From the IMG/VR virus record IMGVR_UViG_3300045988_080644: 64,000 nucleotides of DNA, one strand, 5' to 3'. Shown piece by piece: positions 60,022 through 60,150 of the stretch. The position numbers and the translations under genes were made by a program. Position 1 is the stretch's first letter; each line of letters begins with the position of its first letter. This DNA comes from a virus. The notes beneath the pieces were generated by a model. That model was not told where the DNA came from, did not search any database, and was given only the letters and a program-made list of their open reading frames with translations.

Positions 60022-60093
60022 TCTCTTATGGTGTAATGGTCAGCACAGAAGACTCTAAATCTTTTAGTCAGGGTTCGAATCCTTGTGAGAGAA
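60022..60093 (+). tRNA. suppressor tRNA, anticodon CUA (reads UAG), Gln-type body
   Basis: Acceptor TCTCTTA/TGAGAGA (U1-A72), D arm GGTGTAATGGTCAGCAC, anticodon arm GAAGA-CTCTAAA-TCTTT, T arm CAGGG-TTCGAAT-CCTTG, A73. Confidence 0.85.
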
Positions 60094-60150
60094 GAATAGC
60101 AATAGTAGAAACCTCCACGTGGTGCTATTCGGGTAATGCTAATTCTACTT
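60094..60150 (+). ncRNA. candidate HDV-like (theta-type) self-cleaving ribozyme abutting the suppressor tRNA 3' end
   Basis: Nested double-pseudoknot order. P1 is GAATAGCA (60094-60101) with TGCTATTC (60123-60130). P2 is AGTAGAA (60104-60110) with TTCTACT (60143-60149). P3 is CC/GG around loop TCCACGT. J4/2 reads GGGTAATGCTAA (compare HDV GGUAAUGGCGAA). P4 is essentially absent. Confidence 0.6.

Follow-up and report, generated by a model that had tools for sequence, protein, structure and literature searches.

Theta ribozymes are minimal ribozymes of the hepatitis delta virus (HDV)-like type whose cleavage site abuts the 3′ ends of phage tRNAs (Kienbeck, Malfertheiner et al., Nat Commun 2024; PMC10879173). 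As described there, the tRNA-associated class comprises ribozymes that cleave no more than 5 nt to either side of a tRNA 3′ end, one fifth of the associated tRNAs are suppressors, nearly all of them amber-reading, and motifs with A, G or U at the first position of the joining segment J4/2 are defined as false positives (PMC10879173). A pair from that work, tRNASup0028_Theta0092, cleaves in vitro with a kmax of 1.20 per min and a Mg2+ Kd of 1.53 mM; a pKa of 5.8 is assigned to its catalytic cytosine, and a C-to-U change at this position kills cleavage (PMC10879173). Here we analyze a closely similar element in a 64,000-nt stretch of the IMG/VR virus record IMGVR_UViG_3300045988_080644; this whole stretch is referred to below as the window. 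Our reading, which we hold with high confidence, is that positions 60022–60149 carry a tRNA(Sup,CUA)/theta-ribozyme cassette of a crAss-like gut phage, in which the ribozyme should cut out the tRNA's 3′ end and is accessory to its function, not essential. An element of this kind is already known, a near-identical tRNA/ribozyme pair having been published and tested in 2024.

Anatomy of the tRNA and the ribozyme

ARAGORN makes 16 tRNA calls in the window, of which 15 are on the minus strand; the sole plus-strand call is tRNA(cta) at 60021–60094. The Rfam tRNA model places the same gene at 60022–60093 (+) with 63.3 bits. Its anticodon, CTA (CUA), occupies 60055–60057 within the loop CTCTAAA. The acceptor stem has 7 bp (TCTCTTA/TGAGAGA) with a U1-A72 pair, the discriminator is A60093, and no CCA is encoded at the 3′ end. 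In the ARAGORN drawing, T60021 and A60093 form an alternative eighth acceptor pair, and G60094 would then be the discriminator; the 7-bp stem with A60093 as discriminator, as in the Rfam model, is the standard reading and is preferred here. The tRNA is ∼80% identical to a CUA tRNA that the depositors of the crAss-like phage cr7_1 annotated as tRNA-Gln; cr7_1 has no ribozyme. In the window, the distance from the tRNA 3′ end to G1 of the ribozyme is zero. The features of the element are as follows, with P, L and J denoting paired regions, loops and joining segments; the ribozyme segments from P1 to J4/2 were read directly from the sequence.

60022–60093 (+): amber-suppressor tRNA, Gln-type (ARAGORN, Rfam tRNA model, similarity to cr7_1, TAG/CAG/CAA pattern in relatives)
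60094–60149 (+): theta (minimal HDV-like) ribozyme, 56 nt (covariance model, sub-threshold Rfam matches, Theta0001 segments, family covariation)
60093/60094 (+): predicted self-cleavage site, A60093/G60094 (HDV-family architecture, with the cut 5′ of G1; published junction-spanning oligo, 22/22)
60094–60100 with 60124–60130 (+): P1, GAATAGC with GCTATTC
60101–60103 (+): J1/2
60104–60110 with 60143–60149 (+): P2, AGTAGAA with TTCTACT
60111–60113 with 60121–60123 (+): P3, ACC with GGT
60114–60120 (+): L3, TCCACGT
60115 and 60116 with 60131 and 60132 (+): P1.1, C60115/C60116 with G60131/G60132
60133–60138 (+): L4, 6 nt, in place of P4
60139–60142 (+): J4/2, CTAA
60139 (+): catalytic cytosine, first base of J4/2 (CUAA); the position mutated C-to-U in published inactive constructs, and C in 50 of 50 aligned family matches

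The segment order, P1-J1/2-P2-P3-L3-P3′-P1′-P1.1-L4-J4/2-P2′, with 7 bp in P1, 7 bp in P2 and 3 bp in P3, matches that of the theta class. A first-pass annotation, made by a model from the sequence alone, had picked out a CUA tRNA with loop CTCTAAA as the only one on the plus strand, and had described an HDV-like ribozyme beginning at G60094 directly after the discriminator, with helices in the order P1-P2-P3-P1′-J-P2′, a 7-bp P2, a short P3 around TCCACGT, a P1.1 between the CC of L3 and the Gs after P1′, and a catalytic C in a J4/2-like strand. All of these elements are present at the coordinates listed. Two details need correction: P1 itself stands but has 7 bp instead of the 8 claimed, since an A60101-U60123 pair would take the U that closes P3, and the ribozyme ends at 60149, not at 60150.

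Fourteen further phage theta ribozymes, with the window excluded, were used to build a covariance model that scores the ribozyme at 68.8 bits (E 8.6e-15, model positions 1–55), while the next-best match anywhere in the window, on both strands and with filters off, reaches 13.4 bits. Because of this difference, the ribozyme is to be taken, from its sequence, as real and as unique within the window; the same model, again with filters off, found no second ribozyme beside the window's 15–17 minus-strand tRNAs. The family model thus accepts the fold proposed in the first-pass annotation, whereas the Rfam HDV-type models do not, none of them matching the window at its gathering threshold. HDV-F-prausnitzii (RF02682) scores 23.6 bits against a gathering threshold of 44, over the full model length and with an alignment that begins exactly at 60094; CPEB3 (RF00622) scores 23.8 bits against 35, also over the full length but beginning at 60088; and drz-agam-1 (RF01787) scores 14 bits against 37. 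P4 is deleted in the first two alignments, and the shortfall arises because P4 is absent from the window ribozyme, where it is reduced to a 6-nt loop. Since the scores lie under gathering, we assign the element to the HDV-like fold class and not to any of these specific Rfam families.

The low Rfam scores could be taken to speak for an inactive relic or for a resemblance that arose by chance, as could the minimum free energy z-score of the ribozyme alone, which is an unremarkable −1.15 in a calculation that leaves pseudoknots outside. Such a reading is extremely improbable and was rejected: the family score stands far above the background maximum of the window, every defining position is intact, and a near-identical construct has been shown to cleave in vitro.

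A published counterpart and covariation in the family

That construct is tRNASup0028_Theta0092, which, like the window element, is an amber suppressor joined directly to a ribozyme in a gut phage. Its published inhibitor oligo matches window positions 60081–60102 in 22 of 22 nt, across the tRNA/ribozyme junction, and its reverse primer matches 60124–60149 in 25 of 26 (PMC10879173). The two elements accordingly share the tRNA 3′ end and the ribozyme start, as well as P1′, P1.1, L4, J4/2 and P2′ except for one base. This sole difference in the 48 nt compared is C60130 in the window, which gives a G1-C pair, versus U in the published construct, which gives a G1-U wobble; the comparison covers the two oligo regions, 60081–60102 and 60124–60149. 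Within the compared parts, then, the window pair reads as a one-nucleotide allele of a published element that has been validated biochemically. At locus L134 the G1-U allele itself occurs. The exact ribozyme and tRNA strings of the window had no match in the searched part of the supplementary tables of PMC10879173, a result of little weight given that Theta0001 dominates these tables. All fixed segments of the window ribozyme equal those of the theta ribozymes listed there. The suggestion in the first-pass annotation that the element belongs with the theta ribozymes found beside tRNAs in recoded gut phages is thus borne out by both the oligo matches and the covariance model.

Support of a different kind came from the family at large. 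IMG/VR was scanned for the core ACCTCCACGTGGT-N7-GGGTAANGCTAA, and 66 ribozyme loci were analyzed (65 from IMG/VR plus the window). In nearly every one of them the upstream 7-nt strand pairs in 7 of 7 positions with the N7, across 33 different P1 sequences, and the heptamer preceding ACC pairs with the one that follows CTAA, sometimes with a one-base offset; these pairing counts, and the covariation figures given below, carry some bias, in that best pairing decided the P1 register and the P2′ offset, and the search pattern itself fixed P3 and P1.1. At 41 of the 66 loci, a tRNA end called by ARAGORN lies between −1 and +2 nt from G1. The tRNAs adjoined by a similar core across the family include those for Leu, Met, Pro, Ile, Ala, Gln and Sup.

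Covariation was scored on a gapless alignment of 14 family sequences (a 55-nt subset, window excluded). All pair cells are standard (100%), and double changes occur in six of the seven P1 pairs and in all seven P2 pairs, 13 of 14 together. No shuffle out of 500 reaches the observed score, and slid controls are ∼40% paired. When 46 unique family sequences were considered, P1 was 99% paired and P2 92% paired, compared with 58% and 46% after permutation of the partners; this set includes 33 distinct P1 and 32 distinct P2 sequences. P1 and P2 therefore covary strongly in homologous loci, as the first-pass annotation had expected of a genuine ribozyme. More divergent members also show compensated changes in P3 (A-U to G-C, and C-G to U-A). 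P1.1 is invariant in the family and hence uninformative for covariation, and the first J4/2 position is C in all 50 aligned family matches. Two other alignments were set aside in whole or in part: a MAFFT alignment of 38 family sequences was dropped, with P1 out of register and J1/2 variable in length, and replaced by the gapless subset and a positional parse, and the covariance-model alignment, which scatters the 5′ strand of P2 over insert columns, was used for P1, P3 and the catalytic C only. In bacterial genomes, the suppressor-tRNA pattern gave no match, and the ribozyme core matched seven contigs of metagenome-assembled genomes, including one of 186 kb that is labelled 'Bacteroides sp.' and that, from its size alone, could be a phage binned wrongly.

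UAG as glutamine and ribozyme-less relatives

Two genes of the window are rich in TAG and are the candidate clients of the suppressor.

45370–46431 (−): 19-TAG gene for a cell-wall enzyme, 353 codons, endolysin-like in its N-terminal part and bearing a YkuD L,D-transpeptidase domain
61419–62141 (−): 17-TAG gene, 240 codons, with its TAGs conserved in relatives

TAG makes up 5–7% of the codons in these two genes, while most of the ∼88 predicted open reading frames (ORFs) of the window have none. A crude comparison of ORF coverage under codes 11, 15 and 4 was uninformative in a window that is mostly TAG-free, and TAG counts per ORF were used instead. Eight related loci provide 131 codons at positions equivalent to the 17 TAG sites of the 61419–62141 gene: 121 are TAG, nine are CAG, one is CAA, and nothing else occurs. 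Because only CAG and CAA alternate with TAG, we conclude from this pattern that the phage reads UAG as Gln. With its CUA anticodon and in-frame TAGs at Gln-equivalent sites, the tRNA appears to belong to the Code-15 (UAG = Gln) suppressor tRNAs. The link to recoding drawn in the first-pass annotation thus holds, with TAG acting as a sense codon in at least two window genes.

The YkuD assignment in the 45370–46431 product rests on a Pfam match of 26.8 bits, above the cut-off, over residues 159–302, a region that spans several TAGs; the N-terminal region of the same product matches PHROG endolysin families. The N-terminal ∼65 aa of the 61419–62141 product are homologous to a complete 71-aa protein of the crAss-like phage cr1_1, which is annotated as a 'transcriptional regulator' and is encoded near the portal gene. 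The first TAG of the window gene is codon 58. Given its position and the homology to a complete short protein, the gene could yield a short product without suppression and the 240-aa product with it. Three in-frame TAGs are also present in a LAGLIDADG plus helix-turn-helix (HTH) gene, one of three homing-endonuclease-type genes of the window.

Relatives of the locus were collected from IMG/VR and metagenome assemblies by the exact 3′ half of the suppressor tRNA, which gave 38 loci including the window. The ribozyme is present at 12 of them and absent from the other 26. In a ribozyme-less allele where the whole tRNA was compared (L078), it is identical to that of the window. The alleles differ by a discrete segment.

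60094–60159 (+): presence/absence segment, 66 nt, the ribozyme plus TTAAAAAATG; 'CA' stands in its place in ribozyme-less alleles (junction comparison)

BLAST alignments of the flanks stop at 60097 and restart at 60160, with identities of 95–99%; for one ribozyme-less relative, L093, the three aligned blocks are 99.7%, 96.9% and 99.3% identical. The covariance model, run with filters off, found no ribozyme in L078, L093 or L100. L093 keeps 16 of the 17 TAGs of the neighboring 61419–62141 gene; over the stretches that they cover, the six remaining ribozyme-less loci retain almost all of the TAGs. The same dimorphism recurs in a second lineage with identical upstream sequence, where 'GAGAA-C-ATG...' stands against 'GAGAA-ribozyme-19 nt-ATG...'. 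In one ribozyme-less lineage (L100 and L130) just one C separates the tRNA discriminator from the ATG of the downstream ORF, so that tRNA 3′ processing would leave an essentially leaderless mRNA there. Lineages that share the same ribozyme have three different downstream contexts.

Since the tRNA and the TAG-rich gene are both preserved in near-isogenic phages that lack the ribozyme, the comparison argues against an obligatory role of the ribozyme in recoding. We did not find this presence/absence polymorphism in the text of Kienbeck et al. (2024), and it is the only part of the present findings for which we found no counterpart there (PMC10879173).

In a sister group of 33 IMG/VR loci, the Sup tRNA differs slightly and no ribozyme follows it; several contigs of this group do carry theta ribozymes after tRNA-Leu(UAA) or tRNA-Pro(UGG). 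In a related phage (contig 058566), a similar ribozyme adjoins the tRNA-Leu (L023) but not the tRNA-Sup (L071). The closest paralogue of the window copy, L045, is linked to tRNA-Leu(UAA) and differs from it only in J1/2 and in two fully compensated P2 pairs. Differences among the Sup-linked copies all fall in J1/2, L4 or the partner of G1, and none in P1.1, P3, L3 or the catalytic C, a pattern that fits purifying selection on an active fold. We see about even chances that the ribozyme at the suppressor tRNA is an optional cassette that was gained, lost or exchanged, perhaps derived from the phage group's own tRNA-Leu(UAA) ribozyme.

Some of these observations would also suit a small semi-selfish cassette that recombines between tRNA 3′ ends and is nearly neutral for the phage: in at least two genomic backgrounds it is either present or absent, its borders being clean at the tRNA end, tRNAs of seven kinds are followed by nearly the same core, the copy at L045 is almost that of the window, and contig 058566 carries its ribozyme on a different tRNA. 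We nevertheless think this improbable. We know of no mobility mechanism for a 56-nt RNA motif, neither target-site duplication nor microhomology is evident at the borders of the indel, and the compensatory changes, together with the restriction of variation to positions that tolerate it, show that a working fold is under selection; a neutral passenger would decay.

Role of the ribozyme and its surroundings

In the mechanism that we propose, the tRNA and the ribozyme would be co-transcribed with the neighboring plus-strand genes, since there is no room for a separate promoter between an upstream hairpin and the tRNA; a sigma-70 promoter scan stayed at background level. RNase P, which makes the 5′ ends of tRNAs, would form that of the suppressor. 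The 56-nt ribozyme folds, as sequence and covariation show, into a nested double pseudoknot (P1, P1.1, P2 and P3), in which C60139 and Mg2+ would cut between A60093 and G60094 and release the tRNA exactly at its discriminator. HDV-type cleavage leaves 2′,3′-cyclic phosphate and 5′-OH ends, so that the products would be a tRNA with a 2′,3′-cyclic phosphate and an RNA with a 5′-OH that comprises the ribozyme and everything downstream. The cyclic phosphate would then be removed and CCA added by host or phage enzymes, after which the tRNA, charged with Gln, would read UAG in heavily recoded genes such as the two in the window, one of which encodes a cell-wall enzyme. Most likely, the ribozyme speeds up tRNA 3′-end formation or makes it autonomous, and also detaches the downstream mRNA from the tRNA. 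Rather than a switch for recoding, it is probably an accessory, because near-isogenic phages do without it.

A regulatory version of the hypothesis of Kienbeck et al. (PMC10879173) would make the ribozyme a timer or gate of the code switch: the cyclic phosphate would block CCA addition until a phage healing enzyme is made, or cleavage itself would be regulated, and suppression and lysis would be delayed in either case. The chemistry is the known one of HDV-type ribozymes, the window does contain a heavily recoded cell-wall enzyme, and tRNA nucleotidyltransferase and a DRB0094-family RNA ligase are enriched 250-fold and 140-fold, respectively, in ribozyme-bearing phages (PMC10879173). Yet a gate that near-isogenic phages lack, while retaining the tRNA and the TAG-rich gene, cannot be obligatory; no healing enzyme was found among the ∼50 window ORFs that were scanned; and the published ribozyme cleaves fast and constitutively in vitro (PMC10879173). 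We consider a timer or gate unlikely.

The immediate neighborhood of the tRNA, which sits between an ORF at 59579–59977 and another at 60184–60495, raises a further alternative.

59994–60018 (+): stem-loop TTGGCTAGTT / loop TTGAT / AACTAGCTAA, ending 3 nt before the tRNA 5′ end (terminator-like scan, minimum free energy fold)
60184–60495 (+): first ORF downstream, 103 aa, without a Pfam or PHROG family match (ORF list)

The stem-loop forms an independent domain in the minimum free energy fold. Its stem is kept in relatives with context-A or context-C downstream sequence, its loop is hypervariable in both length and sequence, and once RNase P has cut, the hairpin may shield the upstream mRNA at its 3′ end. 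The downstream ORF also follows the tRNA in ribozyme-less relatives, and after cleavage the ribozyme would sit at the 5′ end of its mRNA. It could be, then, that the ribozyme mainly serves the downstream mRNA (ORFs in 60184–61013), uncoupling this transcript from the tRNA and giving it a 5′-OH end and a pseudoknot cap against 5′-end-dependent decay, with tRNA release as a by-product. The architecture does leave the ribozyme on the downstream RNA, the tRNA functions without it at the 26 ribozyme-less loci, and just 1 nt lies between the tRNA end and the ATG of the downstream ORF in one ribozyme-less lineage, so that tRNA processing and the mRNA 5′ end are physically linked; the upstream hairpin, too, suggests that mRNA ends are managed at this locus. 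However, the constant neighbor of the family is the tRNA 3′ end, met with nucleotide precision at the discriminator whatever lies downstream (PMC10879173), and the downstream sequences vary among lineages with the same ribozyme. A principal role in the downstream mRNA is thus a minor possibility, to be given slightly more credit than a timer or a semi-selfish cassette, and we retain the release of the tRNA 3′ end as the preferred function.

Several points weigh against this preferred function. The Rfam HDV-type models stay below gathering, as described above. The evidence for cleavage was obtained in vitro with the published, near-identical construct, and cleavage in vivo, removal of the cyclic phosphate and co-transcription are proposed steps. 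The cleavage data are moreover those of a G1-U ribozyme, whereas the window has G1-C, and a Watson-Crick pair at the cleavage site slows the HDV ribozyme somewhat; G1-C is, for its part, also found in Theta0001, the most abundant published theta ribozyme, and in four of the 14 alignment sequences. No CCA-adding, RNA-ligase or end-healing enzyme was found among the ∼50 ORFs scanned in the window, which is about one third of the genome. Finally, the ribozyme-less alleles show that the tRNA can work without the ribozyme.

As a rediscovery the element adds little, the mechanism having been published in 2024 with a virtually identical construct that self-cleaves. It does illustrate how a tRNA that reads a stop codon can be produced in some recoded gut phages with no reliance on host 3′-processing nucleases, and it bears on the switching of the genetic code to express late genes, for example those for lysis enzymes. 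What the present analysis contributes is an independent covariation test, direct evidence from this phage that TAG stands for Gln and is concentrated in a few genes, and the dispensability of the ribozyme at this locus in close relatives. If the last point is true, the ribozyme cannot act as an obligatory trigger for switching the code, the role proposed for it in Kienbeck et al. (2024), and the ribozyme-less relatives are natural knockouts in which to follow the effect of a cis-acting ribozyme on tRNA supply, lysis timing and the fate of the downstream mRNA.

The window as a whole has 31% G+C. A minus-strand block at 1–58040 contains replication and auxiliary genes, including those for a primase, a DnaB-like helicase and RNase H, and a plus-strand block starts at 58483. 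From a primase ∼33% identical to those of the Crassvirales and from relatives that are ∼180–190 kb contigs from the human gut, the source was inferred to be a large crAss-like gut phage of ∼185 kb; megablast of the locus against GenBank phages gave no match. The three homing-endonuclease-type genes lie at 58483–59331 (+), 13081–13569 (−) and 21983–22951 (−): two are HNH-type (one matching Pfam HNH_3, the other PHROG endonuclease VII/HNH) and the third is the LAGLIDADG plus HTH gene. Several close relatives have nothing, within their retrieved sequence, that corresponds to the region 54289–59423, which holds the 58483–59331 gene. One relative, L106, aligns across this HNH gene and yet lacks the ribozyme; the presence of the HNH region is therefore independent of that of the ribozyme.

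Other RNA features were also observed. Two RAGATH-1 hammerhead ribozymes, at 53971–54055 (−, 81.3 bits) and 54949–55054 (−, 69.7 bits; gathering threshold 56.3), bracket a 111-aa ORF at 54581–54916 (−). They are located at mosaic junctions, since homology with related phages breaks close by, near ∼53946 and 54288. An ORF-free gap contains a transfer-messenger RNA (tmRNA)-like gene at 33499–33831 (−), which the Rfam tmRNA model scores at 34.3 bits (gathering threshold 47; E 4e-12 locally) and for which ARAGORN makes no call. Its 5′ end is GGGGCU, its 3′ end is ...UAGCUCCACCA, and the Rfam alignment can be read to contain a possible tag frame, GEVNNTSASYAIAA, ending in UGA. Two minus-strand tRNAs, at 44533–44605 and 48700–48771, were oddly detected: for one of them ARAGORN draws a 6-nt anticodon loop with a two-base 'anticodon' (ta) and Rfam gives 52.4 bits, and the other is found by Rfam only, at 35.7 bits. 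The segment 46432–47450, a stretch of ∼1 kb upstream of the 19-TAG cell-wall gene, is free of ORFs in all six frames, also with read-through of TAG and TGA, and Rfam gives no match to it; this could be an unknown structured RNA or a regulatory region.

Among the protein-coding genes, 20621–21685 (−) encodes a 354-aa adenylosuccinate-synthetase-like protein (Pfam Adenylsucc_synt, E 4.9e-26). Phage proteins of this size and type include PurZ, an enzyme of 2-aminoadenine (Z-base) genomes. Unusual phage cargo is represented by an 819-aa P-type cation-transporting ATPase (25881–28340, −), two TerD-domain proteins (28362–28988 and 29097–29699, both −) and an SPFH/Band-7 protein (13596–14384, −).

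The route to a tRNA 3′ end with which the ribozyme is most naturally compared is processing by protein and ribonucleoprotein enzymes, that is, by RNase Z and 3′ exonucleases, with RNase P acting at the 5′ end. The outcome is the same, a tRNA that ends at its discriminator and is ready for CCA, and it is on the RNase Z/3′ exonuclease route that the ribozyme-less alleles of this locus must rely. The ribozyme differs in acting in cis, for a single turnover and without protein, and in leaving a cyclic phosphate instead of a 3′-OH, which would call for an extra healing step. Among published theta ribozymes, Theta0001, which mostly follows tRNA-Leu(UAA), is identical to the window ribozyme in P1, P3, L3, P1.1 and J4/2, and both have G1-C. 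The two differ in J1/2 (AA in Theta0001, AAT in the window), in two compensated pairs of P2 (ATGAGAA/TTCTCAT versus AGTAGAA/TTCTACT), in the L4 of Theta0001, which is GTAACG or GTAATG, and in the tRNA that they adjoin. Theta0001-type ribozymes occur in the window's own ∼185-kb phage group as well (L023, L041 and L045). With the classical HDV-like ribozymes, represented by HDV-F-prausnitzii (RF02682), CPEB3 (RF00622) and the minimal drz-Mtgn, the window ribozyme has in common the order of the nested double pseudoknot, a catalytic C that opens J4/2, G1 at the cleavage site, a 7-bp P1 and a 3-bp P3. It is set apart from them by a P4 cut down to a 6-nt loop and by its position at a tRNA 3′ end, a context specific to the theta subgroup.

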